This document shows positions 7,195 through 55,045 of a stretch of 64,000 bases of DNA, in pieces. Source of the stretch: Schizochytrium sp. TIO01 (Eukaryota > Protista > Bigyra: Labyrinthulomycetes). The notes beneath the pieces were generated by a model. The model made no database searches. It was not told the DNA's origin and was given only the letters and a program-made list of their open reading frames with translations. Where the stretch lies: contig SMSO01000037.1 of the NCBI GenBank assembly GCA_004764695.1, positions 3,138,747-3,202,746 on the forward strand. Reading direction: 5' to 3'. The position numbers were made by a program, and so were the translations under genes. How positions within the stretch are numbered: position 1 is the first letter of the stretch; every line of letters starts with the position of its first letter.

Positions 7195-10100
7195 CTAGCT
7201 AGCAACACTAAACTGATCATCCTCCACGAACATTTGCTCAATACGAGAGACAAATTTGTTGGTGCGAGCGTTCATGTGCCGCGTCACCTGATAGTAATTA
7301 GCTTCCATGTCGAGGTTGTGTACATGCTGGGCAATACGATCAACAAAGTCTTGGTCGTGGGTAATCAGAATAAGCTGGAAGAAACGTGAACCGCGGTGAT
7401 GTCTCAGCACCTCAGCAAGCGCATTTGCCAGACCAATTTTGTTTGGTTCGTCCAAGTTCACCGTGGGTTCGTCAACACTCAAGATACCACAATTAATACT
7501 AAAAGTCTCTGCAAGGGCCATGCGAATCACCAAAGCCGCCATCACACGCTGACCCGCAGAGCAGCGTCCACGCATATCCAATTGTGTGTCACCCTTAGTC
7601 ATGACCACACGGTAGTTATATGACCGGCGGTTAGCAGTGGTCTTGCCCTCGGATTTAATTTCAATTCTATCAATATCACCTCCACGATACATGACGCCCC
7701 ATAGCTCAGCAATACGACGATTAATCTCCTCAATCTTCATTGAGTGGAATTGCATTAGTGCAACATCAAGTGCCTTGTAATACTTGTCGAGATCACTAGC
7801 TGCCATCTTCGTCGTTTCAGTCTCAATATAAGATTTTCGATAGCGCTCCTCAATCCTGTTGTACTCCTGACTACGTAATTGAGCCTCAAGGTTTTGTGCC
7901 TGGCGTTCGAGCTCGCTTTGCCGTGACGCAATACTTGCTTCTTGGCGTTCGAGTTTACGTCGCTTTTCTTCAAGAACTTCTTTCTGCTCTTTAGAAGCGT
8001 TCTCATCACCCAGAATGTCCATGAGTTCTTGCTTCAGCGAGTGACGCTCGTTCTTAAAGATCTGAAGGCTCTTGGTCTCTTCGTGGTATCGCGAAATTTC
8101 ATCAATCTCATGGTTCAGCTTGTCAACACCTGCAATGACTCGTTGGAGCTCCTCAATCTCAGCAAGTTTATCCTGTTGGTGACAAGTTGCCCTTTTCACA
8201 GCTTCTTGCGCGATGGCTTGAGTCTCCTTGTTCGTACGCAGCTTCGCCTGGGTATCCTCAATCTTTTCCGGATCCATCTGTGCAAGCAGTGCTTGTGAGT
8301 TTGCCAAAGTTCTCTCCACAATAGCCTTGGCAGCCTCCAGACCCTTGAGATCTTTCTTGCGTTGCGCCTCGAGTGTGGCAAGAGCTGCTTCTTCCTTTCT
8401 GACCTCCTCAGCGCGTGTCATTTTATTCTTGTTTTCGCGGGAAATACGCTCGACAAGATCCTTCTTTTCATCAAGAATAGCCTTTCTGCGAGTTGAAAGC
8501 TCCTCCGATTTACGGGACTGCTCAAGCAGTTCCACACGACGTGTGCGCAACTCGGATACCTGTGCCTGAGCACGCTGCAAACGACTCTGTTTCCGTTGCC
8601 AGTCATCTTGTAGGCGTTCTTTCTCGGAACGCTTATTGGCGATATCAAGCTCAATCGTTTCCTTGCGCAACCTTGCCTGTTGAAGAGGAGATTGCCCCGC
8701 GGTTGTGCGAGCAGCCTGTTCCGCCACGTCGCTTGTAAGTCCAAGATCTTTGGCCTGGGCTGTCAGGCGTAGGATAGACCCACAAGAGTCCAAGAGACTT
8801 TGCAAAGATGTTCGAGCTGCTACGGCCGGGTCGAGTTTCTGGCTACGATCGCGATCCTTTTCGGCCTCAAGTTTTTCCCGGAGTTGATTGCAATCACTTA
8901 AACCATCCTTTGCAATTTGCAAAGTTGCGGTTTCCTCGTCACGCTGCGACTCCAATTGCTTCTTCCGTTGAATGACAGGGTAAGCCTTTTCAAATTCGCT
9001 TTGCTCACGCTCGGCAGATTGTTTGTTCTTGAGAAGGTGGGCCTTTCTTGAGCCTTCACCATCTTCAGCAGATAGCTCTCGCTGCAGAACGAGCATGCAA
9101 CGAAAAAGATCAAAACCTTTCATATCTCGGTTGGCAGGAAAGTGCAGGTGAGCGCGGTCTGGGAACTTTTGTGATCTCCAGCTCAGATCCCGCGTGACAT
9201 GACCATTAATACCATCAAATACAAGTTGAGGAGCCTTTTTCTGCAAAACCTCTTTGCGATGAGCAGAAATCTCCTCAGCCCAGTTATCGTCGATGCTCCG
9301 CAAGCAAGCTGGGCAAGCAAAGTCCCCGGCTGACTCATTGCGCTCCAAGTTTTCGAGCACAGAATTCAAGTAATCTCCGGCAGCCATGAAGTCATAGTAT
9401 GATGTTTGAGCCACGTGAAGACGCTTGCTCAAGATCGTCCGAATCTCATCCGGCTCGATGCCTTGATTGTATAGCTCCTCAGCAGCACCTGAAAGAGATG
9501 GCATTGTTAAATTTTGCAATTCTGTAGAAATATTTTCGAGGCGTGATTCTGCAGATTTCGCCTCCTGTTTAAGCTGAATAATCTTATGCTCCTCCTTTTG
9601 GATCTCCTGCTCCTTTTCCACCATTGATACCTCCATGGATTCAATATGCTGGTTCAGAGAATCCATTACACTTTCGCCGTGGTCTTGAGTGGATTGCGTA
9701 GCACTAGCAATGCTTTCGTGTTGGTCATCAACAGAAGACGCAATATCTTGATCGAGTTTGCTTAGCGCCGCACTTGACTCTTCGGGCATCTCTTCCTCAA
9801 AGCATAATGTGCTACGAATGTGGCGCTTGAGGTCGTCAACCAAATCGAGGTGTCGGCCACGCTCGTCGCGTGCGGAGGAAATAATGCGGCGGTAGTCTTG
9901 AATGCGATCATGTTGTTCTTCAAGTCGTTCAATCTCATCTGCGGCGATGCGGGCGTCACTGGTTAGGTTCAACATTGCACTGTCTATATCGCGAATAACA
10001 GTGCGCGGGTCATCGTTCTGCATATTAGCCTCTAGACTTTTGACTAATTCATTCTGTTGAGCGATTTGGTTATCGAGTTGGTCAACACGGGTCCCGGAAG

Positions 10101-11634
10101 ATACATGGCTGCTATCGAGCTTATTCAGCTCATCCTGAATATCTTGCAACTGATTACCTTTATTGGACTCCTCCATTCGAAGATTCCGAATCGCAGTTTC
10201 GATACTCGAGACTTGAGAGCGAGCCTCGGCAAGTTTGATCTGCAACTCATCACGCTGTGAATCAAGTGCATTTGTCTGTCGTTCCAAATCAGCATTGACT
10301 TCCTGGTTTCGTGAGCGAAGATAATTCATAGCCTCGTCAATCAGAGAACGACGATTGGTATCCCCAGCAGATGCGTTTGCTCGTGAGGAGTCTAGTGCAG
10401 ACCTAACTCGTGTGGCAAGTTCCATGGCACCTTGTTTGACCAAAGCAACATCAAGCTCATGCATAAGGTTGGACTCACTTCTGGAATGCTGATTCTGTTG
10501 TTCTTCTAGCCTTGCAGCTTCATACTTGGCGGCATTTAAACTGTTTTCTGCAGACTTTAATGCTCGAGTGGCACTTTCGCTCTCGGTTTTCAGTTTCGAA
10601 AGTCTGCTATGGTGGTTCTTAACTTCGTTTCTGAGCTCCTCGCGCTTAGATGTCAGATCATCTTCTTCCTGGTAGTCCTCATGGTTCAACTCAAACGTTC
10701 TCATGCGCTCGCGAAGATCTTTACACTGACGTTTCTTGGTGTCTAGAGCCACAAGGTTCTGGGTGTGTCGTTTTTGAATTTGATCTGCTCTATCAAACTT
10801 GTCTTGTAGACCTTGCAGTTCGTCTCTGACGCGAGTCAGCTCTTCGCCGACGGCAGCGAGATCGCTGTCGAGATTGTCTACTTTCTCCAGAACTTCATTT
10901 CGTTCGTCTGAGTACTTTGACGCCTGTTGTCGCTGCACCAGGAGTACGGCAGTGTTTTTTTCGGCGTCTTTATAGACATCCATGAGACGCTTTTTCTGTT
11001 TTTTAACCTCATCAAGAGCTTTGCTGTAACGCGTGCTGTCAAAGATATCATCAAACTTCTTCTTTAGCACTGAGCTTTCCTGCAACGGCCATGATGAGTC
11101 TTCTTGGTGGCAAAAAATGACAGATTGCAGAATTGCCGAGCTAACGCCCATGAACATTGGCACCATGCGGTCCAGATCGGAGCACCTTCCAGATATGGTT
11201 TCTTCATTACCAGTCCTCCTGTCCTTAATTTTGAGTAAGCCCTCCAGCTGCTTGAATTCCAACTTTGTCTTTCTCTGCGTCAGCTGCATCTTTCTCGATA
11301 TGAAGTATGATCTTCGTTCTACCGCTCTTGTGTTCACAGCCAACTTAACCTCAGCCTTGACCTCCGTCAGGTTTGCCATTTGTGGGTCATGTACAAAGCC
11401 TTGTCCATTGGCTACGCCCGGAGGCATCTGGCCTGTGGTCGCGAACTTAAGGCACTCAAGGACCGTCGTTTTACCTGCACCATTGTTGCCTGAGATCACC
11501 GTCAAAGGTTTGTCGAAGCGGATTACCTGCTCCTGCTCCGGCCCAAAGCTGCGGATGCCGCGGATTGCAAGCTTCGATAGCGTAGCGCCGCGAGGGCCTG
11601 CGTTGCCACTGCCACCTGGCCCGTTTCCGTCCAT
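7195..11634 (-). CDS. RAD50: DNA repair protein RAD50
   Basis: Walker A GNNGAGKTT, Q-loop FCHQEDS, long coiled coils, zinc hook CPAC, signature MRGRCSAGQ, Walker B/D-loop LSVDEPTVNLD, H-loop ITHD. Confidence 0.97.
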   Translation of the reverse strand: MDGNGPGGSGNAGPRGATLSKLAIRGIRSFGPEQEQVIRFDKPLTVISGNNGAGKTTVLECLKFATTGQMPPGVANGQGFVHDPQMANLTEVKAEVKLAVNTRAVERRSYFISRKMQLTQRKTKLEFKQLEGLLKIKDRRTGNEETISGRCSDLDRMVPMFMGVSSAILQSVIFCHQEDSSWPLQESSVLKKKFDDIFDSTRYSKALDEVKKQKKRLMDVYKDAEKNTAVLLVQRQQASKYSDERNEVLEKVDNLDSDLAAVGEELTRVRDELQGLQDKFDRADQIQKRHTQNLVALDTKKRQCKDLRERMRTFELNHEDYQEEDDLTSKREELRNEVKNHHSRLSKLKTESESATRALKSAENSLNAAKYEAARLEEQQNQHSRSESNLMHELDVALVKQGAMELATRVRSALDSSRANASAGDTNRRSLIDEAMNYLRSRNQEVNADLERQTNALDSQRDELQIKLAEARSQVSSIETAIRNLRMEESNKGNQLQDIQDELNKLDSSHVSSGTRVDQLDNQIAQQNELVKSLEANMQNDDPRTVIRDIDSAMLNLTSDARIAADEIERLEEQHDRIQDYRRIISSARDERGRHLDLVDDLKRHIRSTLCFEEEMPEESSAALSKLDQDIASSVDDQHESIASATQSTQDHGESVMDSLNQHIESMEVSMVEKEQEIQKEEHKIIQLKQEAKSAESRLENISTELQNLTMPSLSGAAEELYNQGIEPDEIRTILSKRLHVAQTSYYDFMAAGDYLNSVLENLERNESAGDFACPACLRSIDDNWAEEISAHRKEVLQKKAPQLVFDGINGHVTRDLSWRSQKFPDRAHLHFPANRDMKGFDLFRCMLVLQRELSAEDGEGSRKAHLLKNKQSAEREQSEFEKAYPVIQRKKQLESQRDEETATLQIAKDGLSDCNQLREKLEAEKDRDRSQKLDPAVAARTSLQSLLDSCGSILRLTAQAKDLGLTSDVAEQAARTTAGQSPLQQARLRKETIELDIANKRSEKERLQDDWQRKQSRLQRAQAQVSELRTRRVELLEQSRKSEELSTRRKAILDEKKDLVERISRENKNKMTRAEEVRKEEAALATLEAQRKKDLKGLEAAKAIVERTLANSQALLAQMDPEKIEDTQAKLRTNKETQAIAQEAVKRATCHQQDKLAEIEELQRVIAGVDKLNHEIDEISRYHEETKSLQIFKNERHSLKQELMDILGDENASKEQKEVLEEKRRKLERQEASIASRQSELERQAQNLEAQLRSQEYNRIEERYRKSYIETETTKMAASDLDKYYKALDVALMQFHSMKIEEINRRIAELWGVMYRGGDIDRIEIKSEGKTTANRRSYNYRVVMTKGDTQLDMRGRCSAGQRVMAALVIRMALAETFSINCGILSVDEPTVNLDEPNKIGLANALAEVLRHHRGSRFFQLILITHDQDFVDRIAQHVHNLDMEANYYQVTRHMNARTNKFVSRIEQMFVEDDQFSVAS

Positions 11635-12659
11635 CGCGCCGCCTGAGGTAGCCTCTCTCCAAAACCTGAGACCACCTATTTCGGATTTGTTTGCCTATGT
11701 AGGCGGAACCAATCTACGAATAATATGAGATATACTTCATTGATATGTTGTGAATGTGAGCGATCGATTACCTCAATGTTTTACGTACCAGTGCCTTACT
11801 GGTAGTTAGTCCTTTTGAGAACATTAATAAAGAATAAAAAAATGTTTTTTTCCTTGAATTTCTTATCATGAGATTTGAGAGCGCCTTCTCTCATGAGCCA
11901 TTTCGTGACACAGATGATTTCGTCATGGATATTGGTTGAAGTCAAAATATCTACATGGAGGACAAGGCAGCCATATAAACGTGATTCAGTTTGCATCCGC
12001 ATAATATATAACCCTTTCATCAGGCTATCAAGCTATGTAAGCCCAGTGCTCAGAAGATTAGCAAAACTCTAGATTAGCTCGTGAAAAGCTTGTAACACAG
12101 TGGGCTTTCCTTCGCTCAATATCCTAGGTTGAAGGTCGCGATTGATTAATCTATCTGGTGTTTGCTCTCCGACAAAATACATCTTTGAAGCTTGCGTGTC
12201 AGCCCTCAATGCCGTGCGTTTCCATCGTTCATCAGAATGTCTATCCCCAAACTATGATAGTAGAAAGGCTACTTCCTGAATTAGGATTATTACCGACTTT
12301 GATGATCACCTGACCTTTAAAATGAGAATCTGTATGACTTCCTTGCACCAACAGTAGCTGCTTGCTCCATTCCTTCATGAACGAATTCAAGACTTGCAAA
12401 GCTCCCTTGGTTACCTGTTTTCCTAAAATTCTTTTTTAATTACAAATAGTACTACATTCATCATTAGAAGAGACCTGATTTTGTAGATTTAATAGTAGGT
12501 AAGTAGTCCTACCTAGGTGCGTAGTTGATAGATACCCTCTTTTTTTGTCAATTAAGGCAGCAGAACTAATCCACGTGCACGCAATTTAGCGCGACAACCT
12601 AGAAGGTCCTGTTACTCCTTAATCGGAGCTCCGGACTGGAATTGCGACTTAGGAGCAGC

Positions 12660-14363
12660 ATGTGGCTTTTCCGCCGCCGGGGTATCAGAGGAGATCCACG
12701 GCAGGCAGATCGTCCGCTGGAAGGCAACTCCAGCCTCATCAGCGCTGGAAATGTTACTAGTTACCCAACGCCTCAAGACAATATTGCAGTGGGCGTCTCC
12801 TGCGATGCAGATGATGACAACGGTGTAAATGATTCTGCTAGCGAGGACGGAATAGAGTATATTTGGCAAGCGGCGTCTGTACTGGTCGATGGATTTTCGG
12901 TGCGAAATCTTCGTATTTGCAATTTGCCCGACCTTGAGGTCCTGCCCTCAAGACTCCATGTTCAGGCAAAACTTGAACTTATCAGGCTTCCTGCGCTTTG
13001 GGGGATTCCAGAGGATCTTAGCATTATGAGCCTCTCGGTGATCAACTGTGCTTCCTTTACTGCCATGCCTGATATGGTCTTTTACCATGATCTACATCTT
13101 CAAGGACTTCCAGTTTTGCAAACCTTACCATCTGCTGTAGAGGTGGAAGGCAATGTCGTGTTGATAAATTTACCTGCTCTACAAGAATTACCAGCATATC
13201 TTCATGTGCAAGGAAACCTATGTATTTACAACTGTCACGAACTTTGCACTCTGCCGGATGGTGTATGTGTCGACGGAGATATTGTTATTGAGAATTGTCC
13301 TAGGGTTACTACTTTGGCGATCTCGATGCTTGAAAGCCGTGGCGCAGTTCATCTGCGTGGGACCGGAATTACAGATGATGAAATTACACGTCTTCAAGGT
13401 CTTGCGCATCCAGCTTTACAATTTCTCTTGAGTGGAGATACCTTAGATTTATTTGAAACTCTAGAGGAAGCTGTCAATTTTTGGATATCACTCGTGCAAG
13501 AAGCTGGACTGGACACCGACCCAAACATAGTAGAAAACCTTGAATCCTGTGTTGATGAAGCTTACTGTGACTCACTTTTACAGTTCCTGCACAAGTTACG
13601 AACATGCAAAGAATATAGGCTGGAAGATCTGCGCTCGACGCTTGCTTTTCAAGTCGTAGAAGCTATTGAGCTCATTATTAGTGACGAAATTGCACGTCCG
13701 CAAATTTTGCTGCAAATTTCAAACAGCGTAGACTCCTGTGGGGACCAAGTGGCATGGGCGCTGAATCAACTCAGCTTAGGCTCTTTGATTGCACACGCGC
13801 GGGGAGATAGGGAGGCTCTGCGAGAGCTGGGTTTACGAGTTATGCGCCTAGAAATAGTTCATGACCATGCAAGGAAGACTGTAGCTCGTATTCATGGAGA
13901 TAGTTTTTCAGAGGAGGTGGAGGTGTATCTTGGCTTTGAAATTGCACTGCGTGACCGCTTGAATCTACCTGTGACTGTCTCGGCCATGCTCTACCCGCGT
14001 TACGTGCAACAGCTTGCAGAAGTAAACTTTGAAGACGCTTCTGAAGCAGCTATGAACATAACAAGTGAAGATTTCGAGACATGGCTCTTGCATTGGGATG
14101 AGTGGCTCCGGCAAGATCGTCTTGAGACCTGCCAAAGCTTGCAATGGGAAGCTCTCCCTCTAAGTCGGCTCAGCGCAGATGACGACTTCCCGACAGATCT
14201 TTATGGCGATCCTGCAGTGCATCCTGTTCGATTAGGCTCGTTACAGACCCCGTGCGAGCTTGATGATCTAGTGGCTCATTGGGTGTCTACTAGCCGAGAT
14301 TTCAATAACTCTTTCTACTCTGTAGAAGACTTCCTGCGCAACTTGCAGCGGGTTTCAACGTAA
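12660..14363 (+). CDS. LRR + NEL (novel E3 ligase, IpaH/SspH/SlrP type) ubiquitin ligase with a possible degenerate U-box-like tail
   Basis: About 22-aa LRRs (LxxLPxxLxVxGxLxIxxC). The NEL core reads LLQFLHKL...QVVEAIELI...SCGDQVAWALNQL...RLEIVHDHAR...EEVEVYLGFEIALRDRLNLP...MLY, collinear with the IpaH-type FLDRL...SCEDRVALTWNNL...FRLE...DEIEVYLAFQ pattern. The Cys codon is at 13737-13739. The first ATG is at 12660. Confidence 0.82.
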   Translation: MWLFRRRGIRGDPRQADRPLEGNSSLISAGNVTSYPTPQDNIAVGVSCDADDDNGVNDSASEDGIEYIWQAASVLVDGFSVRNLRICNLPDLEVLPSRLHVQAKLELIRLPALWGIPEDLSIMSLSVINCASFTAMPDMVFYHDLHLQGLPVLQTLPSAVEVEGNVVLINLPALQELPAYLHVQGNLCIYNCHELCTLPDGVCVDGDIVIENCPRVTTLAISMLESRGAVHLRGTGITDDEITRLQGLAHPALQFLLSGDTLDLFETLEEAVNFWISLVQEAGLDTDPNIVENLESCVDEAYCDSLLQFLHKLRTCKEYRLEDLRSTLAFQVVEAIELIISDEIARPQILLQISNSVDSCGDQVAWALNQLSLGSLIAHARGDREALRELGLRVMRLEIVHDHARKTVARIHGDSFSEEVEVYLGFEIALRDRLNLPVTVSAMLYPRYVQQLAEVNFEDASEAAMNITSEDFETWLLHWDEWLRQDRLETCQSLQWEALPLSRLSADDDFPTDLYGDPAVHPVRLGSLQTPCELDDLVAHWVSTSRDFNNSFYSVEDFLRNLQRVST

Positions 14364-14566
14364 TCATACTGTTCAGTATATCTTTCAGTTGAACCACTGG
14401 CTGTAAAATATCAGCAACGTTTTCTGTCGTTAATCTCATTGTAAAGTAAGACAATATTTATTTGCATACGTTCCTGAAGCATCCTTCATTGGATATAAGT
14501 CAAATTGATTCTTCTTTTTAAAGTAGCACTACCAAGGGGGATAGACTTGCAACGCTTGCATCGAGC

Positions 14567-15103
14567 TTAATACATAACTTGCATTTGGTTTTCTTGGCGC
14601 TGGAGCTCATCAATGTGATTGTGTTGGCGTTGCAAAGCTTGGCCAAGGCTATTGTTGCGCTGTTCCCAAGGCTCCACATTCTCATGGCCGAGACGTTGCT
14701 TGATGGCGCGTTGTCGAGCTGCAGAAATGCCTCCAATCCACTGCTCTCGCTCCCCTGCAGAGCCCGCAGAGAACAAGTAGGTCTTACGCACTGAAATGAG
14801 CCTGAATGCAAATGGAAGGACTTCGCCATCATCATCCACTTCATAGTCCGCCAGTTCTACAGTGAAATCCTCCAGATCAAGAGGCACACCCTTGGGACGC
14901 TTATGATTCTCAGAAGCGAACCTGTACAAGAACTTACCTCGAATCACAGCAAACCTGCGTTTGTATATGGTTCCAAAGCACGGCATTGTCTGAAATTTCA
15001 GTCCGCGTTTCAACAGGTATCCTTGAACCACGTTGTGGTCATCTCCTGGGACCGTTCCGAACCGATCGACATCAAGCGGGGCGAGCATCGGGTTTTGCCT
15101 CAA
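14567..15103 (-). CDS. PH-domain protein (sesquipedalian/PHETA-like); start uncertain
   Basis: VQGYLLKRG...YKRRFAVIRGKFLYRF...PKGVPLDL...FAFRL...TYLFSAGSAGEREQWIGGI. Confidence 0.85.
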   Translation of the reverse strand: MRQNPMLAPLDVDRFGTVPGDDHNVVQGYLLKRGLKFQTMPCFGTIYKRRFAVIRGKFLYRFASENHKRPKGVPLDLEDFTVELADYEVDDDGEVLPFAFRLISVRKTYLFSAGSAGEREQWIGGISAARQRAIKQRLGHENVEPWEQRNNSLGQALQRQHNHIDELQRQENQMQVMY

Positions 15104-15717
15104 GCAGACTTCTTTAGAAGAAAGGTTACGAGACGCTTAAACTCTTCTCAAATTCCTCTGTATCGACGAAAGGGTTTCTCGCAGCAGCAGTGCTTCGTTC
15201 AACAATCGCGTTTTCATAATGCTTGTTATTCAATCAAGTTCTTCGTTTCTCAAGTACCAGCACAACTAAGGAACCGGCTTGGAACTAGAGGTATCCTACC
15301 TAATTAGACTAGTACTGGAGCTATCTGCGACATGGTTGAATTTTCAACTTGAAGTTGCAGTATTCACAAACGGAACTTTGTTTTCAAAACGCAACCAAAT
15401 GAAAAATAGAAAGTATCATTGGAATATTATTAGAGATACCAGATACGTCATATTTGGGCCTCTGTGCTATAGAATTAGTCATGCTAAGTCAATACAGTTA
15501 CTACAGCCATAGAATGCCTTCCATATTAGTCTCTCTAATATCTTTCTGCGGAGTGCTAAAGGGAGGATATGAAAAGAACTCTAAATGTTGAGATGCCATT
15601 GTAGTACTGCTGAAAAGAGAGACATGCCAAAGTAATTAGAAAGGCAAATAACGGCCTAAAGACCAAAAATCAAAAGTTAAAGTCGGGAAATGTATATGCA
15701 AATATGAATATTTCAAA

Positions 15718-17229
15718 CTAAAATGGGCGAGGGGCACGCTCATAAACCTTGTGGAACTTGACAGGAGATGGTTCTGCCATCGCGTCGGCACTCGGCGCAA
15801 ACCGAGGATCACGGTCAACCACAATGGAAAGAGTATCACGAAGAATACCATCAATAACAGGCTGCAGGCGTTCACCAGCCTTACTAAGATCCGGTTCAGC
15901 ATTAGCCTCAAGCAACCAAACACCCCAATTAGGGTCAATCATGAAATCAAGACCAAAGAGTTCGAAGCAGTTGGCGCGAGGTTGGAAAGTCAGTTCAGAT
16001 GAGGTCGCCTCAACAACCTCTGCACACATGTCGTAGACACGGTTACGGACGGCCTCAAAGCGCTCACGTGCCTCGGTCTCATCCTTCGCAACTCCTGAGG
16101 TAACCATGTCAGGAATTGTTTCCTCAAACAGTCGCATACAACGATGTTGATCCTCCTCAGATAGAACCTCCTGATGAGCAATGTTTGTCAAGTGTGCGCG
16201 AGTGTGCTCGATAGGAGCGTTGCTGTAGGGTTCTAAAGAAAAAATCGCCAAAAAGTCAGGAGACACGTATGCTGTAAGGTTTCCATGAAGAAGCATAAAT
16301 ACGCGGAGATGAAACTTCCGCCCATCCAGCAGTAGAGGTGGCAAATAGTACTGAAGAACAAAGTCACCAGCACGCTGCATTTCATCTGCTTTCACTAAGG
16401 CTTCCCGAAGGGTATCAGGAGAGTCTACCAGTGCAATTCCATTAGCTTGATTCGTAACACTCGGTTTAAGAATCCAAGTCTTTTGAGAAGCATTTTCAAA
16501 CCCTGGAAACCCAGACCGCTCCAGAGCGGCTTCGAGAGCTTTATCAAAGGCTTCTTTTGAGTCTTCATGGCCATCGTTTGCCTCAAGAGTAAGAATATAA
16601 GACTTCGGCGCGATCGGGGTGCGGTCGGAGTACTTGGTACGCCACTTCTCCAAGATGTATCCAAGGTGGCCCTTACGGATGAGGCCCTTGCGGTTATAGT
16701 AGCAGCTCACCAGAGACTTTCCACTTGAGAACTGTTTGCCGAACCATTGCAAGTGCTCATACTCACCCCAGTGAAGGTCAAATGGAACCTCCTCGCCTTC
16801 TTCTTCAGGGACTGAAGTAGAAATGCGCCACTGTGGACGAGACTCGAATGCTGATAGCAGAAGATCCTGAACGTACTCATCTTCAAGCGTAACGAGTGCC
16901 ACGAGGTCACGAGGTCCCGCGTCGGTATCCTGACCATTATTTCCATCAGCATCTGAGCCTTCAGAAGCTTCAATACCATAGCGTTCAGGAAAAAGATTTC
17001 TGTAATATGCTGCATGGTCAAACTTCTCCAGTTCCTCTTCTTCTTCATCGTCATCGTCCTCGCCTTCGTCCTCCGAAGACGACGAGTCCGAGTCGTCGTT
17101 CCTGCGACGGAACATGAGCATGGCTGCCAGGTCGCCATTGTCGCCAGCATCCTCGCCCAAGACACTCTGCAGTGCCGCCAGAGCCCCTGCGCTCAGCGAG
17201 AAGTCATCTCCTGTGCCGGATTCCGACAT
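15718..17229 (-). CDS. Tubulin-tyrosine ligase-like (ATP-grasp) protein, Pby1-like
   Basis: RKGLIRK, WILKPSVTNQANGI, VLQYY...PLLLDGRKFHLRVF, HLTN, FELFGLDFMID, WLLEANAEP. Confidence 0.9.
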   Translation of the reverse strand: MSESGTGDDFSLSAGALAALQSVLGEDAGDNGDLAAMLMFRRRNDDSDSSSSEDEGEDDDDEEEEELEKFDHAAYYRNLFPERYGIEASEGSDADGNNGQDTDAGPRDLVALVTLEDEYVQDLLLSAFESRPQWRISTSVPEEEGEEVPFDLHWGEYEHLQWFGKQFSSGKSLVSCYYNRKGLIRKGHLGYILEKWRTKYSDRTPIAPKSYILTLEANDGHEDSKEAFDKALEAALERSGFPGFENASQKTWILKPSVTNQANGIALVDSPDTLREALVKADEMQRAGDFVLQYYLPPLLLDGRKFHLRVFMLLHGNLTAYVSPDFLAIFSLEPYSNAPIEHTRAHLTNIAHQEVLSEEDQHRCMRLFEETIPDMVTSGVAKDETEARERFEAVRNRVYDMCAEVVEATSSELTFQPRANCFELFGLDFMIDPNWGVWLLEANAEPDLSKAGERLQPVIDGILRDTLSIVVDRDPRFAPSADAMAEPSPVKFHKVYERAPRPF

Positions 17230-17657
17230 CCTCTACACACAGGCCGCTCACGTCCTTGTCCAATTCCATTTCTGCTCGCAAAACCATTGAATACAACAGA
17301 CCAAGACCTAAAAACAATTTTATAAAAACAATTCATATGATGGTTTGTGAATAGAGAATGAAAAGTTACAATGAATTATGGGGTTCCCAATACTATCGAC
17401 TATAGAGGACGCAAATGAAGTATGTCTCAATATTCACTATTAGGCAAACAAATCCATCGTTATTCGATCTATTCATTGATTGATGATTCAATTGAGATCG
17501 ATCTCACATGAGCCTATTATGGCCAAGCACCAAACCGTGATTGAAGAGCAGCCACGCCTCTCTGCGTAGGGAGACGCTCTTTACTTCAGCGACACACTTG
17601 GGGTTGCTGGAGCCGGAGCGGCTGCCCAGAACCTACCTGCCACTCTACCTGCCCTGA

Positions 17658-18956
17658 TTGAGCGGGCGCAGAGCAGAACGGCGGCAGTTTCCGGGTTGTG
17701 GCTTTTCATATTTTGGCCTCACTTGCTTGGCTTTGGTTAGCTCGAACTTATTCAACAATAAGAATTTACGAGATTGGGGTCTCTTGTGCAAAGATTCAGG
17801 CACTATGGGGGTCTCTGCGACAGAGTCCGCAGGAATATGTGCGAAATTGGGAGTGATGGAGGTCCTTGGTGTTCTGGTGATGCTTTTGGGGCTCGCACTG
17901 ACGATTCTGGCGCCAGATATGGATATGCCCACTGCACCTGATCTCGCTGGGGACGCATCGGCAAGCAGCATCACTCTCATGTGGAACGCACCGTTGTCAG
18001 GTTGTTACACGGAAATATGCAAGTATGAGCTAGAGATGGCAAAGGTTCACGTCGTGCATAGCCGCTCCGGACAGGCCAAGAAAGCTGAATGGTATGCCGT
18101 AGAAAAGGGTCTTGTCGAATTCAAACCCAGGACACTCCTCAAACATACCGTTGAAAATCTTGAAGCCAATCAGCCATACCAGTTCAGGGTTCGCCACTGG
18201 GTAGCAGATCTTGAAAACCCTGGATCGAAGGGTGGTAAGTGGGGCCCCTTTAGTAAATCTTCAGGCAGAATATTCACAGAGCAGACACGCCGAGATGCTC
18301 GGGCTCGGTCAAAGAATCAATCAAGACGGATGGTGATTGATTGGAATGGAAAATTGCATAGATTGCGATCCTCAATAGTTTCATTTCTTTGGGGCACAGT
18401 GCACATGTCTTTGGTAACAATGCATTTGAGCCTCGTATGCGTCCTTTTTGGATTTGTTGCCCTCCTCACTGAATCATATGTACCAATCCTGGAGTTCTTC
18501 AATCGTGTGTTTTCTATACCAAAGTTTATCGTCATTTGCAGAACTGCTCTACTCATTCTCATCCTCGCATTAGTGGAACCTCTTGTGAGTACAACAAATA
18601 TCATGGGCCCGCTTCTCTACGGGGCCACAACAGTTGCAAACGTTTCTGCTGTAGTTGCCAGTGGAGGTCTCGCTATCAGCCTTTTGTGGTGGCATTGCTC
18701 TCGGTTTGAGTGGTGGGGCTTTTCCAATGCCCCAAGCTTCTTTGTTGGTGTATGTTTTCTCTCGGGTGTCTACTGGCGTCTCGCGAAACCGCTAGTTGCG
18801 CGTAACTTCCACGCTGAGTCAAGTCCTCAGACAGTCACTCTGCTCATGTATCTTCTTTGGCTGAGCGCTGTTTTTGCGATTGTTCTCATTGTCTCTCTTT
18901 CGACGCGAACCTTCTATGGTGCTCTGAGTGAACGAAAGGGCATCATGTCACGCTAA
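17658..18956 (+). CDS. Fibronectin type III domain multi-pass membrane protein; start uncertain
   Basis: PTAP...SSITLMWNAP...YELE...VENLEANQPYQFRVR...WGPFS, followed by several hydrophobic helices. Confidence 0.75.
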   Translation: MSGRRAERRQFPGCGFSYFGLTCLALVSSNLFNNKNLRDWGLLCKDSGTMGVSATESAGICAKLGVMEVLGVLVMLLGLALTILAPDMDMPTAPDLAGDASASSITLMWNAPLSGCYTEICKYELEMAKVHVVHSRSGQAKKAEWYAVEKGLVEFKPRTLLKHTVENLEANQPYQFRVRHWVADLENPGSKGGKWGPFSKSSGRIFTEQTRRDARARSKNQSRRMVIDWNGKLHRLRSSIVSFLWGTVHMSLVTMHLSLVCVLFGFVALLTESYVPILEFFNRVFSIPKFIVICRTALLILILALVEPLVSTTNIMGPLLYGATTVANVSAVVASGGLAISLLWWHCSRFEWWGFSNAPSFFVGVCFLSGVYWRLAKPLVARNFHAESSPQTVTLLMYLLWLSAVFAIVLIVSLSTRTFYGALSERKGIMSR

Positions 18957-19343: not shown

Positions 19344-20609
19344 TTAGGGAAGGCCCATAACTACGGAGTTGCAGAGGTATGGATTAGAAAACGTTGTCAT
19401 TTCACCGGCTTGCTTCCCCTGAACTGGAAGGACCCGGCAGGATAAGGGTTTTGACCACTTGCTCGATAGAGCCCATAGATCCATTAACAGAAGGGCAACT
19501 TTGTCTTGTCCAACATCACCGGGGACCGGAACGGTATCAACACCAACACCACATACTGCAGAAAACAACAACAGATCTTGCACAGTGAAACGCCCTGCTG
19601 ACGCTGCCTCAGCAAGGCCCTTATCTTCCATTTGGGGCAGCATTAGTCCAGAATAGCCACACAGGTTAACGTTGGCAGCTTTGCCAGCATCGCGGATGGC
19701 CTGAGTCAACAAATAACAGAGTGAAAGTGTTCCTGTCGTTCCAAACATGCTAGCCTTAGGGTTATTATTAACATGACTCAACATGGTGTGGAATGCTTGA
19801 CCAATACCAGGATCTGACAAACTTGGATTCATAGAGGCGTCCACACCCAAAAACGTTGCCTGAGTTGAGCAAGCAATTTCTTGACAGGCACTTCCAAGTG
19901 GTTTAAGCATACTAACCATGCGATTCATGAGCTCCTCACGACAAAGCTTGTATGCTAAGGCATTCTCATTCTCGCCCATGGAAGCTGTAGCAGCATCCCA
20001 AGCTTCATTAAGCAGATTGCTGGTCTCCAAACCAACTGAGAAACAAATAACATCACTCGCAGAAAAATATGAAGCTGGGAAAAATGGGGTACCACTAGGC
20101 ACATTGGAGCTCACACAAAAACGGAAGCTACCCTCACCATTGCTTCCGATCTTGGCAACCTCCTTCGTTACACCAGCAAGCTTGAAGGCCCGGTCATAGT
20201 CAGGTAGAACTGAGGCAGCCTCGTTTTCTTGCGCCAGACTTGCTGATATATTCAAGTTAGATGACAGCTTGAGGATGCTTGGGATAAGGTTGAAATAGCA
20301 GGAGTCCTTGAGCAAACCAAGGTTGACAAATTGCACATCATGTTTTGCACAAATTGTGCCAAGCCGAGTTAGCTGAGCAAAAACCTCATCCTGACTCAGG
20401 GAAGCAAAATCAATGTACTCTTCGATCGGGTTGCATGACAAACGCAATGTCTGCACGACATCCACGTGTGCATTGCTAGCCAGTAGTTCAGTTTTAGCTT
20501 TCTCCAGAAAAGTTGCGACTGTCTCAACCTTTCGCGACAAGATTTTCTCATCGTCACAATCGCCATGACTCAGAGTTAGAGACGCAGTCACCGTTCGTAC
20601 TACCACCAT
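19344..20609 (-). CDS. DUF711 / UPF0210 family protein
   Basis: VRTVT, PFFPASY, GVDASMNP, GYSGLMLPQMED, SAVCGVGVDTVPVPGD, KPLSCRVLP. Confidence 0.85.
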   Translation of the reverse strand: MVVVRTVTASLTLSHGDCDDEKILSRKVETVATFLEKAKTELLASNAHVDVVQTLRLSCNPIEEYIDFASLSQDEVFAQLTRLGTICAKHDVQFVNLGLLKDSCYFNLIPSILKLSSNLNISASLAQENEAASVLPDYDRAFKLAGVTKEVAKIGSNGEGSFRFCVSSNVPSGTPFFPASYFSASDVICFSVGLETSNLLNEAWDAATASMGENENALAYKLCREELMNRMVSMLKPLGSACQEIACSTQATFLGVDASMNPSLSDPGIGQAFHTMLSHVNNNPKASMFGTTGTLSLCYLLTQAIRDAGKAANVNLCGYSGLMLPQMEDKGLAEAASAGRFTVQDLLLFSAVCGVGVDTVPVPGDVGQDKVALLLMDLWALSSKWSKPLSCRVLPVQGKQAGEMTTFSNPYLCNSVVMGLP

Positions 20610-42087: not shown

Positions 42088-42738
42088 TTAGTAAGCCAAT
42101 TCTAATGCATTTGTTTCCAGAGAAGCTTTGACATACTCTAGAAAGATAGGAATGTGGCGACTTGTCCTCTTGCGTTCTTGTTGAAGCGTCACTAAGTAAA
42201 GGCGTTTGGGGAAAAGTTGCAAGTTGGCATGGCATGCGAGGTCGTCGGGTGAAAACTTGAGCAAGTAAGGGTGAATCAAATCAGTGCATGGTGGCGCCAG
42301 GCCGCTGTGTTCGAGGATCCAGGCGAAGAGCACTCGCACAGTCCTGCCATTACCATTGGCGAAGGGATGAATGTCGAGGAATGTAGCATAAAACCTAGTG
42401 ATGCTCTCGATGGACCACATGTCTAGTTCTCGAACCAATCTTTCAATCTTGGCGTGGATTTCGTGTGGCAAACAATAAACAATAATATCCTTCGAAAGTT
42501 CACCTTGAGAAGTAAGCCTTCTAGTAAAGGCTACTTGAGTCCTAAATTTATTATTATTATGCTGAGAAGTTAAAACTTTTCCGTTGATCGTTTGGATAAA
42601 CTCGATCGTTAAGCCACCGCGATGCAACCGCGCGAAGTCTAACGCTACTCCCAATGCTTCGGCCTTCGCCGGGGTTGGGTGTGAGGACTCCATATTTAAT
42701 GCACTCGCGACGAAGCGAGCGCGCAAGTACTCACACAT
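42088..42738 (-). CDS. Fic/Doc (Fido) domain protein
   Basis: FLDIHPFANGNGRTVRVL matches HxFx(D/E)GNGRxxR with Asn at the acidic position; upstream FRTQVAF flap-like segment. Confidence 0.88.
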   Translation of the reverse strand: MCEYLRARFVASALNMESSHPTPAKAEALGVALDFARLHRGGLTIEFIQTINGKVLTSQHNNNKFRTQVAFTRRLTSQGELSKDIIVYCLPHEIHAKIERLVRELDMWSIESITRFYATFLDIHPFANGNGRTVRVLFAWILEHSGLAPPCTDLIHPYLLKFSPDDLACHANLQLFPKRLYLVTLQQERKRTSRHIPIFLEYVKASLETNALELAY

Positions 42739-42901: not shown

Positions 42902-44515
42902 CTAGTATTTTTTTTGGCGAACATCTGGTCCCGACAACCTTGTGTCTACTTTATGGTTTTGCCTAAAGTGCTTGATGATAATATTTTTCGATTTATAATG
43001 TCTTCCACAGAAATCGCACAGAAATATTGGGTCCCCACCCTCCGGGTTGTATTTCAATATATCAATATAATCAAGAACCACCCTAGTCACAAGTGACGGG
43101 TCAATGGGAAAGTTCACAATCTTAAATTTAACCGGCAACATAATTTCTGTGTAGAGTTTGACCTTGTCTCCTGTTTTCAGAAATTGACGGCGCCACTCCA
43201 GCAGTTTTTGGCGGTTATCTTGGTCAGCCCTTTTAGCAGCATTATGGTTTAACTCAATGTGTTCTGTGATATCGTATTTACTTTTAAATATACTTCCGCA
43301 GAAATCACACAGAAATAATGGTTTCCCATCCACCGGGTTGTATACCAATATGTCAATATTATCACCAACCGTTCTAGTCACAAGTGACGGGTCAGCGCGA
43401 AAGTTTGGAAACGTATTCCGAATCGGCAATTTGATATCTGCATAGAGTTTGGGTTTCTTCCCTAGTTTAACAAATTTACTGCGCCATTCCAGTAGTTGTT
43501 GGCGACGCTCTTGGTCAGATAAACGCTTGTGTAGTTTATGTGCGTATTTAATATGCCTGTCAATACTCGCTTTCAATTGATAATGTCTTCCACAGAAATC
43601 GCACAGAAATATTGGGTCCCCACCCACCGGGTTGTATACCAATATGTCAATATTATCACCAACCTCCCTAGTCACAAGTGACGGGTCAATGGGAAAGTTT
43701 GAAAACTTATTCTTATCCGGCAACATAATTTCTGCATAGAGTTTGACCTTCTCGTTTGGTTTAACAAATTGTCTGCGCCACTCCAGTAGTTGTTGGCGAC
43801 GGTCTTGGTCAAGCAACCTTTTCAATCCTCCATGTATGTTTTCAATATGACTGACCAAATTATATTTATCTTGGTAATTTTTTCCACAGAAATCACACAG
43901 AAATAATGGTTTCTCGCCCTTCGGTTGGTATTTCAAGATGTCAATATCATCACGAACCACTCTAGTCACATATCCCGTGTCAGTGATAGAGATTGTTGGG
44001 TAGTTATATTTACCCAGCAACTCAAATTCGTTATAGAGTTTGAGCTTCTCTTCTGGTTTAACAAATTTACTGCGCCATTCCAGTAGTTGTTGGCGTTTTT
44101 CTGCATCTGAATATTCTGCTGCTGCTGGTGATAATGATGCTTTGGGATACTGCGACAAAGCTGTTTCGTTACCGTCTTCCCAATCCATCGCATCAAACCC
44201 CTCTAGAGTATGTAAAGAATCATTATCTTCCCAATCTACCTCACCAACCCCCTCTAGGGTATGTACAGAATAATCATCTACCCAATCAACACTTGCTGGT
44301 AAATTTAGGTTGGATGAGCTTTGTTCCATTTCTGTTGGTGACCCAAAATCCCACGTGAGTTGATCATTATCCACACGCGGCCCCACTCCACTGTTCGGTG
44401 TTGGCTTGTCACCAAAAGCATTACTTACATCAAAATCCTCCTCAACAGAACTAGCATCACTGCCGTCCAAGGAGTGTTTCCGTTTCTGACCAGTAAGTTG
44501 CTCCAAGAATGTCAT
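42902..44515 (-). CDS. Modular C2H2 zinc-finger repeat protein, paralog 1 (4 modules)
   Basis: KRKH NLS-like motif, acidic DW-rich region, four 97-99-aa modules each ending in C-x2-C-x12-H-x4-H. Confidence 0.85.
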   Translation of the reverse strand: MTFLEQLTGQKRKHSLDGSDASSVEEDFDVSNAFGDKPTPNSGVGPRVDNDQLTWDFGSPTEMEQSSSNLNLPASVDWVDDYSVHTLEGVGEVDWEDNDSLHTLEGFDAMDWEDGNETALSQYPKASLSPAAAEYSDAEKRQQLLEWRSKFVKPEEKLKLYNEFELLGKYNYPTISITDTGYVTRVVRDDIDILKYQPKGEKPLFLCDFCGKNYQDKYNLVSHIENIHGGLKRLLDQDRRQQLLEWRRQFVKPNEKVKLYAEIMLPDKNKFSNFPIDPSLVTREVGDNIDILVYNPVGGDPIFLCDFCGRHYQLKASIDRHIKYAHKLHKRLSDQERRQQLLEWRSKFVKLGKKPKLYADIKLPIRNTFPNFRADPSLVTRTVGDNIDILVYNPVDGKPLFLCDFCGSIFKSKYDITEHIELNHNAAKRADQDNRQKLLEWRRQFLKTGDKVKLYTEIMLPVKFKIVNFPIDPSLVTRVVLDYIDILKYNPEGGDPIFLCDFCGRHYKSKNIIIKHFRQNHKVDTRLSGPDVRQKKY

Positions 44516-44751
44516 TTTTTATCGTTTGTTAAATAAAACAAATACTATTTTGATTTATGATTTAAGCGAGCGCGCAAGTACTCGCACATGCTTTACGTAG
44601 CAATTTTTTTTTTTCGCGTTTAATAGTTAGCTTTGCTTGTTTGCGCACTTCATTCACCATTCAATCCTAATACATATTTATTAATATGATAAATAAAAAT
44701 CTGTATATTCCTTGATCTTCTCTCCCGGTTTAAGAATTTGATGGAACCATT

Positions 44752-46374
44752 CTAGTATTTTTTTTGGCGAACATCTTGTCTCAACAACCTTGGGTCTACT
44801 TTATGGTTTTCCTTAAAGTGCTTGATGATAGTATTTCTCGATTCATAAGGTCTTCCACAGAAATCGCACAGAAATATTGGGTCCCCACCCACCGGGTTGT
44901 ATTTCAATATATCAATATAATCAAGAACCTCCCTAGTCACATGTTCCGGTTTAGCGGGAAATTTTTTTAACTTAAAAGTAACCGGCAACATAATTTCTGT
45001 GTAGAGTTTGGCCTTCTTTTCTGGATCAACAAATTGACGGCGCCACTCCAGCAGTTTTTGGCGGTTCTCTTGGTCAGTCCTTTTAACAGCATTATGGTTT
45101 AACTCAATGTGTTCTGTGATATCGTATTTACTTTTAAATATACTTCCGCAGAAATCACACAGAAATAATGGTTTCCCATCCACCGGGTTGTATACCAATA
45201 TGTCAATATTATCACCAACCGTTCTAGTCACAAGTGACGGGTCAGCGCGAAAGTTTGGAAACGTATTCCGAATCGGCAATTTGAGATCTGCGTAGAGTTT
45301 GACCTTCTCTTCTGATTTAACAAATTGTCTGCGCCACTCCAGTAGTTGTTGGCGACGCTCTTGGTCAGATAAACGTTTGGCTAGTTTATGTGCGTATTTA
45401 ATATGTCTGTGAATACTCGCTGTCGATTGATAAGGTCTTCCACAGAAATCACACAGAAATACTGGTTCCCCATCCACCGGATTGTATACCAATATGTCAA
45501 TATCAGGACGAACCATTCTAGTCACAAGTGACTGGTCAGCGCGAAAGTTTGCAAACTTATCCTTATCCGGCAATTTGATATCTGCATAGAGTTTGACCTT
45601 CTTATCTCGATCAACAAATTGACGGCGCCACTCCAGTAGTTGTTGGCGACGCTCTTGGTCAGATAAACGTTTGGCTAGTGTATGTGTGTCTTTAATATGC
45701 CTGACCAAATTACGTTTATCTATGTAATATTTTCCACAGAAATCACACAGAAATATTTTCTCCTTCTCATTCGGTTGGTATATTAAGATATCAATATCAG
45801 GACGAACTATTCTAGTCACAAGTTTTTGATCATTGATTTTAAGTAGAGGTAAGCTGTTAACGGGCAATCTGATATCTGCATAGAGTTTGACCTTCTTTTC
45901 TGGATTAACAAATTGACTGCGCCATTTCAGTAGTTGTTGGCGTCTTTTTGCATCTGCATATTCTGCTGCTGCTGATGATGATGATGATGCTTTGGGATAC
46001 TGCGACAAAGCTGTTTCGTTACCGTCTTCCCAATCCATCGCATCAACCCCCTCTAGAGTATGTAAAGAATCATTATCTTCCCAATCTACCTCACCAACCC
46101 CCTCTAGGGTATGTACAGCATAATCATCTATCCAATCAACACTTGCTGGTGAATTTAGGTTGGATGAGCTTTGTTCCATTTCTGTTGGTGACCCAAAATC
46201 CCACGTGAGTTGATCATTATCCACACGCGTCCCCACTCCACTGTTCGGGGTTGGCTTATCACCAAAAGCATTACTTACATCAAAATCCTCCTCAACAGAA
46301 CTAGCATCACTGCCGTCCAAGGAGTGTTTCCGTTTCTGACCAGTAAGTTGCTCCAAGAATGTCATTTTTTTCAT
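44752..46374 (-). CDS. Modular C2H2 zinc-finger repeat protein, paralog 2 (4 modules)
   Basis: Near-identical N-terminus to paralog 1; four CDFC...H-x4-H modules. Confidence 0.85.
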   Translation of the reverse strand: MKKMTFLEQLTGQKRKHSLDGSDASSVEEDFDVSNAFGDKPTPNSGVGTRVDNDQLTWDFGSPTEMEQSSSNLNSPASVDWIDDYAVHTLEGVGEVDWEDNDSLHTLEGVDAMDWEDGNETALSQYPKASSSSSAAAEYADAKRRQQLLKWRSQFVNPEKKVKLYADIRLPVNSLPLLKINDQKLVTRIVRPDIDILIYQPNEKEKIFLCDFCGKYYIDKRNLVRHIKDTHTLAKRLSDQERRQQLLEWRRQFVDRDKKVKLYADIKLPDKDKFANFRADQSLVTRMVRPDIDILVYNPVDGEPVFLCDFCGRPYQSTASIHRHIKYAHKLAKRLSDQERRQQLLEWRRQFVKSEEKVKLYADLKLPIRNTFPNFRADPSLVTRTVGDNIDILVYNPVDGKPLFLCDFCGSIFKSKYDITEHIELNHNAVKRTDQENRQKLLEWRRQFVDPEKKAKLYTEIMLPVTFKLKKFPAKPEHVTREVLDYIDILKYNPVGGDPIFLCDFCGRPYESRNTIIKHFKENHKVDPRLLRQDVRQKKY

Positions 46375-46413
46375 CGTTTGTTAAATAAAACAAATACTAT
46401 TTTGATTTATGAT

Positions 46414-47493
46414 TTATTTTCTGTTTTTCTTCTGCTTCTTCTCTAGTGCCGTTCCGGTCAGCGTCGCCTTTTGCAGGGTGAAATATGGCCCCGACAGCCA
46501 TGTGTCTAGATTATGGTCGCGTCTAAAGTGATTCATCAATATATGTTTACGTGCATAATCTCTACCACAAAAATCACACACATATCTTGTCTCCTTACTA
46601 TTCGGCTGGTATACTAAGATGTCAATATCATCATGAACCTCTCTAGTTACAAGTTTTGGATCATCGATTTCAATTAGAGGTTTCCTGTTAACGGGCAACT
46701 TGATGTCTGTGTAGAGTTTAAGCCTCTCTCCTGGTTTAACAAATTGTCTGCGCCATTCCAGTAATCGCCGGCGACGGTCTTGGTCAGACCCTATTACTAC
46801 ACCATGAACGACGCGAAAGTGCTGTACCACGTTATCTTTATATTGAAAATATTTTGAGCAAAAATCACACATATATATTTTCTCCTTCTCATTCGGTTGG
46901 TATATTAAGATATCAATATCAGGACGAACCATTCTAGTCACAAGTTTTTTATCATCGATTTCGATTAGAGGTACCGTGTTAACGGGCAATCTGAACTCTG
47001 CATAGAGTTTGGCCTTCTTTTCTGGATTAACAAATTGACTGCGCCATTTCAGTAGTTGTTGGCGTTTTTTTGCATCTGCATGTTCTGCTGCTGATGATGA
47101 TGATGATGCTTTGGGATACTGCGACAAAGCTGTTTCGTTACCGTCTTCCCAATCTATCGCATCAACCCCCTCTAGAGTATGTAAAGAATCATTATCTTCC
47201 CAATCTACCTCACCAACCCCCTCTAGGGTATGTACATCATAATCATCTACCCAATCAACACTTGCTGGTAAATTTAGGTTGGATGAGCTTTGTTCCATTT
47301 CTGTTGGTGACCCAAAATCCCACGTGAGTTGATCATTATCCACACGCGTCCCCACTCCACTGTTCGGGGTTGGCTTGTCACCAAAAGCATTACTTACATC
47401 AAAATCCTCCTCAACAGAACTAGCATCACTGCCGCCCAAGGAGTGTTTCCGTTTCTGACCAGTAAGTTGCTCTAAGAATGTCATTTTTTTCAT
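46414..47493 (-). CDS. Modular C2H2 zinc-finger repeat protein, paralog 3 (2 modules, chimeric tail)
   Basis: Same N-terminus; two modules; the last ~20 codons resemble the 3' end of the NTPase gene. Confidence 0.85.
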   Translation of the reverse strand: MKKMTFLEQLTGQKRKHSLGGSDASSVEEDFDVSNAFGDKPTPNSGVGTRVDNDQLTWDFGSPTEMEQSSSNLNLPASVDWVDDYDVHTLEGVGEVDWEDNDSLHTLEGVDAIDWEDGNETALSQYPKASSSSSAAEHADAKKRQQLLKWRSQFVNPEKKAKLYAEFRLPVNTVPLIEIDDKKLVTRMVRPDIDILIYQPNEKEKIYMCDFCSKYFQYKDNVVQHFRVVHGVVIGSDQDRRRRLLEWRRQFVKPGERLKLYTDIKLPVNRKPLIEIDDPKLVTREVHDDIDILVYQPNSKETRYVCDFCGRDYARKHILMNHFRRDHNLDTWLSGPYFTLQKATLTGTALEKKQKKNRK

Positions 47494-47596
47494 CGTTTGT
47501 TAAATAAAACAGATACTATTTTGATTTATGGTACTTAAATAGATTGCTAAATTAAAAAAAAAATAATGTGCGTAGAACTAGACCTTCTTTCCTGAT

Positions 47597-55037: not shown

Positions 55038-55045
55038 CTCCCCCC
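55038..55045 (-). promoter_or_regulatory. Polypurine tract GGGGGGAG
   Basis: ctcccccc on the + strand, immediately adjacent to the 3' LTR. Confidence 0.88.

Follow-up and report, generated by a model that had tools for sequence, protein, structure and literature searches.

The locus and its predicted product

In the 64-kb window (i.e., the whole stretch of DNA that was analyzed), a single open frame encoding 567 amino acids lies between genes for RAD50 and a PH-domain protein. The initial annotation had described an intronless ORF in this place, and re-examination of the region confirmed this. The genes and features considered here are listed below, with the basis of each assignment in brackets.

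7195..11634, minus strand: RAD50, left flank, divergent to the NEL gene (ORF and Pfam)
12580..14468, plus strand: likely transcript span (contig ends in three of four RNA-like runs; the contigs are strandless, and the hint is weak)
12660..14363, plus strand: LRR-NEL-U-box-like gene, 567 aa (one open frame, intronless)
12660..12875, plus strand: N-terminus, aa 1-72, predicted to be disordered (pLDDT <50 at aa 1-44 and 51-72)
12894..13364, plus strand: predicted LRR solenoid of about seven 21-aa repeats, aa 79-235 (predicted model, Foldseek, repeat spacing)
13446..14129, plus strand: NEL catalytic core, aa 263-490 (PF14496, core HMM envelope, Foldseek)
13737..13745, plus strand: C360-G-D362, equivalents of IpaH9.8 C337/D339 (alignment)
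13911..13913, plus strand: E418, aligned with D397, the catalytic base of IpaH9.8 (alignment; PMC7728815)
14175..14357, plus strand: predicted domain of U-box/RING fold at aa ~506-566, where IpaH/SspH have their helical E2~Ub-binding thumb (model, fold and profile searches)
14567..15088, minus strand: PH-domain gene, right flank, convergent to the NEL gene (ORF and Pfam)

The Cys codon that had been assigned to position 13737, within SCGDQ, was correctly placed (TGT starts there), and the motifs previously listed as RLE...EEVEVYLGF..LRDRLNLP..ML are present in the ORF. No second copy of the NEL gene was found within the 64-kb window, nor were mobile-element repeats seen to flank the gene, only chance-like pairs of 14-18 nt being detected.

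Elsewhere in the window, all on the minus strand, other sequences were noted. At 42902-48679 there are four tandem paralogs (537, 540, 359, and 360 aa) that share a near-identical acidic N-terminus, carry a variable number of ~98-aa repeats, with one C2H2 zinc finger in every repeat, and have a GC content below that of the left half of the window. Adjoining this zinc-finger array is a small Fic/DOC gene (42088-42738; Pfam, 44.9 bits), whose HPFxxGNGR motif looks complete. A 972-aa ORF at 48712-51630 contains a P-loop-like GTSGAGKT sequence and has no Pfam match at E 0.001; it presumably resembles Crinkler-associated NTPase proteins. A Ty1/copia-type pol occupies 54970-59401 as two overlapping ORFs (RVT_2; Pol_BBD and SH3), the second of which opens with a short tandem repeat. 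Finally, a DUF711 gene (239 bits) at 19344-20609 is possibly another horizontal acquisition, the DUF711 family being mostly prokaryotic.

The ORF encodes an LRR-NEL protein

Comparison of the 567-aa product with the Pfam NEL model (PF14496) yielded a match at aa 299-483, with an E of 1.2e-24 and a score of 87.4 bits, as compared to a cutoff of 24. The best 12 of the 15 PDB sequence matches are IpaH/SlrP/SspH proteins, the top E being 2.6e-13. AlphaFold2, provided with an 87-row alignment, generated a model (mean pLDDT 86.7) in which a disordered N-terminus leads into the LRR (aa ~80-235), followed by the helical NEL core and, at the end, by a small beta/alpha domain. When Foldseek was used with the model, ranks 1-7 were held by full-length LRR-NEL effectors (SspH1, IpaH3, SlrP, SspH2, IpaH9.8, and IpaH1880; E 3e-12 to 8e-7), with the TM of ~0.3 seen in these full-length matches being caused by a different domain orientation. 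The LRRs reported earlier are seen as a 21-residue repeat at aa ~79-235 and as a repeating strand pattern of high pLDDT; Pfam made no LRR call on the 567-aa protein. The protist ORF is a genuine LRR-NEL protein, in which the LRR is the predicted substrate-binding module.

With the NEL effectors IpaH, SspH1/SspH2, SlrP, and NopM, the protein has in common an LRR followed by a NEL core, the CxD motif, and the same fold, and the acid and base positions align. It differs from these effectors in being encoded by a eukaryote, outside any type III secretion context, and from IpaH/SspH in its 21-aa LRR, as opposed to their 20-aa repeat, and in presenting a U-box-like domain instead of a helical thumb. 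Relative to IpaH9.8, identity is ~31% over 166 aa, and Glu stands at the catalytic base. Two class features of IpaH/SspH-type effectors are absent, namely, the C-terminal helical thumb and a bacterial gene with type III secretion.

The gene belongs to the eukaryotic genome

The presence of the locus in independent sequencing runs was considered. Twenty of the 24 runs listed, from 11 studies, contain at least half of the sampled words of positions 11000-15200. In each of four DNA runs, coming from four studies, one contig runs from inside RAD50 over the NEL gene and as far as the PH and TTL genes. Two of the DNA-run contigs cover all of 9000-18000, with 17 and 10 differences; one near-identical DNA run may be the source of the window, and the four DNA runs differ from one another. 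Across these and four RNA-like runs, no joints are found in the ORF, and its eight variable sites (four synonymous and four non-synonymous) include no stop or frameshift. The NEL gene has a GC content of 0.476 and a GC3 of 0.42, both within the range of 12 other window genes (GC3 0.35-0.60).

Three of the four RNA-like runs contain a separate contig from 12580 to 14415-14468, with zero cover of 11757-12509, and the fourth contains a longer contig (11992-15175). RNA-like is a guessed label, no run being recorded as RNA, and these contigs offer a weak hint of transcription. Firmer is an MMETSP transcript of 567 aa that falls in the same 90% cluster as the protist protein. The NEL gene is likely expressed.

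The nearest named relative, Hondaea fermentalgiana GBG25413.1, is 48% identical and is found on a 1.1-Mb contig, which points to a thraustochytrid as the likely host of the NEL gene. The annotated Hondaea ortholog is without the N-terminal disordered part, its match beginning at aa 81, and is already labelled 'NEL domain-containing' in UniRef, an annotation that comes without a description.

That intact eukaryotic flanks oppose contamination, as had been argued from the sequence, is borne out by the four bridging runs, the MMETSP transcript, and the Hondaea ortholog. An assembly artefact in which bacterial DNA was joined to a eukaryotic contig might be suspected of a gene that is intronless and whose closest solved structures are bacterial effectors. 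However, the neighboring genes in the window are likewise intronless, the four DNA runs of four studies bridge both flanks with strain-level differences, an ortholog exists in Hondaea, and the best match outside the clade described below is just ~31% identical over the core. The artefact is largely refuted, with next to no probability left to it, and the gene is, to near certainty, genuinely eukaryotic.

The gene is a member of an expanded clade

An exhaustive search returned 143 representatives (50% clusters) at E <=1e-30, and the best 150 were used. For a quick tree of 144 rows, four near-duplicates and two fragments were dropped; six matches were to the LRR only, without the core. This tree splits clade E (75 rows, including the protist gene) from group B (69 rows) with an SH-aLRT of 100. 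In a careful 30-row tree of the NEL core, with rows spread over the subclades, support for clade E is 100/100. The gene is not a lone IpaH-like import but rather a member of a large, deeply diverged clade of 75.

When 13 clade-E clusters were looked up, one carried a eukaryote species name, five more contained MMETSP transcripts, and none carried a prokaryote name; two NCBI proteins among these look-ups give no organism. A NEL was detected in all 33 clade-E proteins scanned, 13 of which also contain SPRY (7), ARM (4), SAM (1), or TPR (1) domains, with some of the C-terminal extra domains possibly being gene-model fusions. A second clade-E gene is situated between ALG6/8 and Spo11/Top6A genes on L002. 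It was also observed that the clade-E gene at L002:4389-5131 is preceded by LRR-like pieces in other frames, such that introns or a broken 5' end are possible.

Pattern scans for clade E confirmed none of 34 candidate stretches in GTDB genomes and none of 4, 1, and 5 in viral contigs; as every scan relied on one or a few short patterns, this is weak evidence of absence. The ESM Atlas gave no usable match to aa 255-567, and when a clade paralog served as query, the NEL-bearing clusters listed were all 98-100% bacterial. Given its 75 divergent members, some of them with fused domains, clade E is likely an old, expanded eukaryotic family.

The active site

C360 and D362 of the protist protein align with C337 and D339 of IpaH9.8, and the Cys and Asp of the CxD motif are invariant in all 74 clade members covering the site. 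In IpaH9.8, D397 is the catalytic base (PMC7728815, PMC9320238). This residue aligns with E418 of the protist protein; Asp occupies the position in 73 of 75 clade members, with Glu being found only in the protist gene and its Hondaea ortholog. Similarly, the Lys that follows CxD in 70 of 74 members is absent (no Lys/Arg) from the same two proteins. In addition, G545 of the U-box loop is Ser in the protist protein. Because Glu is found at the catalytic base and the Lys after CxD has been lost, the protist paralog may be attenuated, even should the family prove active. Q331 was also entertained as a lost conserved Arg, an idea that was dropped as IpaH9.8 also has Gln there.

The C-terminal tail resembles a U-box

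NEL domains had initially been described as unrelated to HECT/RING, a statement that holds for the catalytic core but not for the C-terminus, which is U-box-like. When aa 490-567 were folded alone, a pLDDT of 92 was obtained. In a Foldseek search with this tail, the top 11 rows were all U-boxes (E4A, E4B, Prp19, Ufd2; prob 0.84-0.99), with those of E4A, E4B, and Prp19 reaching prob 0.97-0.99, E being above 0.05 throughout. Among 48,161 chains compared by VIA-align, AvrPtoB was best (Z 6.6, rmsd 3.0, 78 aligned), with Prp19 (Z 5.7, rmsd 1.9, 54 aligned) and then SP-RING, U-box, and RING chains following; such Z values (<8) are modest taken alone.

Profile comparisons point in the same direction. 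In the family profile, IpaH/SspH matches end at ~550 and U-box matches occupy 552-620, and a tail-only profile of 16 rows matched LubX (E 2e-5) and Prp19 (E 9e-5); U-box or SP-RING proteins made up 15 of its 17 matches. Pfam detected no U-box on the protist protein or among the 25 top families for 48 and 53 members, and NleG, a bacterial U-box family, weakly matched two of 53 members scanned. A profile comparison against the RING of CNOT4, encoded in the window, gave a negative result (prob 0.15), and no match to the tail was found in plasmids.

A tail score of at least 20 bits is reached by 72 of the 75 clade-E rows and 62 of the 69 group-B rows; these values are circular, as the profile was built from the same rows. 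In non-circular comparisons, a B-only tail HMM scored 63 of 73 clade-E tails at 10 bits or more, and an E-only tail HMM scored 38 of 66 group-B tails. None of 30 classical NEL tails (IpaH9.8, Edwardsiella, Bradyrhizobium, 24 Pseudomonas, Myxococcales, and two unnamed) was scored by the tail profiles, the maximum being 4.8 bits. In clade E, U-box loop 2 is one residue shorter and mostly without the Pro present in 79% of group B; another tail position is Asn in 85% of clade E, as also in Prp19, and Arg in 42% of group B. From the models and profiles, the tail very probably adopts a U-box/RING fold.

In SspH1, the E2~Ub-binding thumb is described as a hairpin of helices that spans residues 623-697 and starts 131 residues beyond the catalytic Cys, C492 (PMC12506513). 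The protist NEL core ends 130 residues after C360, and the protein ends at C+207, as compared to C+208 in IpaH9.8. Given these matching Cys-to-end offsets, the predicted U-box would occupy the place of the IpaH/SspH thumb.

Group B and the origin of clade E

In the group-B neighborhood, 19 of the 120 listed proteins carry a prokaryote name, namely, 14 Rhabdochlamydiaceae and five Endozoicomonas; part of group B is without taxonomy. Endozoicomonas had earlier been proposed as a guess, one that proved apt, as the named members of the nearest group are Endozoicomonas and Rhabdochlamydia proteins. One group-B member, located on a 30-kb contig, is attributed to Acer saccharum and is a probable contamination. 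The 'NEL-type E3' proteins of Ca. Rhabdochlamydia and Endozoicomonas sp. SCSIO W0465 present the same three-part layout, with a 21-aa LRR and a U-box-like tail, and are nearest in the trees. They differ from clade E in being bacterial, in containing CxDR rather than the CxDKP consensus, and in having a more canonical U-box motif. Their U-box tail is missing from their Pfam annotation, and no description of it was found in open-access PMC and bioRxiv full text.

At least six LRR-NEL-U-box paralogs were observed on one 7.2-Mb Endozoicomonas sp. SCSIO W0465 record (P0182, P0082, P0163, P0198, P0207, and P0235 being among the proteins concerned), and three in a Rhabdochlamydiaceae symbiont of a Dictyostelium-like host. 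A GTDB scan for one group-B subgroup returned only Pseudomonas (24) and Myxococcales (1) NELs, all without the tail. A Myxococcales MAG protein (L003:62-4483) was separately seen to combine LRRs with two tandem NEL-like domains, the first without the CxD Cys and the second with CGD.

A modal LRR spacing of 21 was obtained for 27 of the 75 clade-E rows and 54 of the 68 group-B rows, and in many rows no spacing recurs; in three classical NELs the spacing is 20. Because the B-tail HMM scores E tails and both groups have 21-aa LRRs, sequence comparison suggests shared ancestry of clades E and B. In the 30-row NEL-core tree, E and B together stand apart from seven classical NELs with weak support (77/61, or 90/90 when the long-branched P0006 is counted with E and B), and a 73-row quick tree agrees (support 89). 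Group B was monophyletic in none of 200 bootstrap trees; in AU tests, its monophyly was unrejected (p 0.21) and a grouping of E with IpaH-type NELs was borderline (p 0.052). The clade-E stem is long (1.08-1.45 changes per column), and bacterial proteins are nested inside clade E in no tree. Clade E thus appears to be sister to B or nested in B.

The U-box motif of group B is closer to that of Prp19/LubX (Cys 96%, Pro 79%), and the E version is derived. Because group B keeps the more Prp19/LubX-like motif, transfer from bacterium to eukaryote would be favored. Precedent for passage from a prokaryote to a thraustochytrid is described for carotenoid genes (PMC10016063). The initial annotation's proposal of a horizontally acquired, domesticated NEL hence stands in part: the gene is a real eukaryotic chromosomal gene, and a bacterial origin of clade E is the likeliest reading rather than a direction of transfer established by the tree.

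One could alternatively suppose that the NEL-U-box fusion arose in, or passed through, a eukaryote and then entered bacteria, or that both came from a shared unsampled source, with clade E being a sister and not a descendant. U-boxes are mainly eukaryotic, the AU test lets group B be monophyletic, and so long a stem can misplace clade E, all of which would suit this scenario. It is nonetheless distinctly unlikely, given that bacterial proteins never nest in clade E, that the bacterial U-box motif is the more Prp19/LubX-like of the two, and that the named outgroup NELs are all bacterial.

A proposed mode of action

On balance, and with a probability that we put somewhat above even, the protist LRR-NEL-U-box protein would be the host's own cysteine-relay ligase, descended from one ancient transfer from a host-associated bacterium. 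Judging from its fold and position, the U-box (aa ~506-566) would take over the function of the IpaH/SspH thumb by binding the host E2~ubiquitin. As expected from NEL chemistry, ubiquitin would pass to Cys360 as a thioester, and would move on from Cys360 to a lysine of the LRR-bound substrate; the LRR may also restrain the NEL core, as in IpaH. Domain matches observed among paralogs and orthologs point to N-terminal recognition modules having been swapped. A role against intracellular microbes or viruses would be a guess; Aurantiochytrium is described as carrying persistent mirusviruses (PMC12606086).

More tentatively, the captured effector may have given rise, in labyrinthulomycete protists, to an E3 class of their own, a U-box/NEL hybrid that combines RING-type E2 binding with a cysteine relay, with dozens of swapped modules (LRR, SPRY, ARM, SAM, TPR) serving as a receptor-ligase immune repertoire, and with the same hybrid forming an unrecognised effector class of chlamydial/Endozoicomonas symbionts. 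This broader proposal is possible rather than probable.

In the fold and motif of its tail, the protein is like the U-box proteins Prp19, UFD2/E4B, LubX, and AvrPtoB, from which it differs in the fusion of a NEL core to the U-box, whose loop 2 is shortened; to our knowledge, Prp19, UFD2/E4B, LubX, and AvrPtoB have no catalytic cysteine domain. The same logic is seen in RBR/RING-Cys-relay ligases (HHARI, Parkin), where E2~Ub docks on a domain of the RING type and the acceptor Cys belongs to another domain; MYCBP2 is a RING-Cys-relay ligase. The likeness is one of analogy only, as the hybrid would have an unrelated NEL catalytic domain, the reverse domain order, and a zinc-free E2-binding module. 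RBR RING1 domains are described as being without the linchpin (PMC5462532). The clade-E tail mostly has Asn where group B often has Arg, though Asn is found there in Prp19 as well.

The protist paralog could instead be attenuated or repurposed, acting as a weak ligase, as a regulator that discharges E2~Ub, or as a scaffold; alternatively, its U-box alone could serve as a RING-type ligase, with the NEL Cys being dispensable. The Asp-to-Glu change at the catalytic base, confined to the protist gene and Hondaea, the missing Lys after CxD, likewise restricted to these two, and G545S in the U-box loop speak for attenuation. Glu can, however, still serve as a base, C360 and D362 are retained in both species at 48% identity, and none of the eight variable ORF sites introduces a stop or frameshift, while for a stand-alone U-box, CxD invariance across the clade would be needless. 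Unproductive discharge of E2~Ub is described for autoinhibited NELs (PMC12506513), in line with such repurposing, which we nevertheless hold to be rather unlikely. Far less credible is export of the protein as the protist's effector against a host, prey, or competitor. Effector ancestry and the expanded, variable recognition modules would be in keeping with export, but the N-terminus is charged and predicted to be disordered, with no hydrophobic signal stretch visible by eye, and cytosolic proteins are the usual setting for fusions to SPRY, ARM, and SAM. The cysteine-relay ligase, accepting ubiquitin from a U-box-bound E2, is the reading that we prefer.

Significance

In open-access PMC and bioRxiv full text, neither a eukaryotic NEL family nor a NEL-U-box fusion was found, although genome-paper supplements or subscription journals may list such genes. 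A 'NEL' in green-algal NLRs was considered and set aside, as it is an LRR-type ODAL domain presented as 'homologous' to NEL, with no catalytic NEL evident in that account (PMC7145615). The predicted U-box tail of the family, common to symbiont NELs, is previously unrecognised.

A ligase type thought to be confined to host-infecting or host-dwelling bacteria thus has a eukaryotic clade, in which a predicted RING-type domain is attached to the NEL core. Should the protein prove active, the RING-plus-cysteine ligases, few in number so far, would gain another architecture, and the E2-binding module of NELs would be exchangeable. The step of transfer from E2 to NEL is described as structurally uncaptured so far (PMC12506513), and the protein of a free-living protist offers a handle on it. 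In addition, a weapon directed against eukaryotes would here have been domesticated by one of them and expanded into a gene family.
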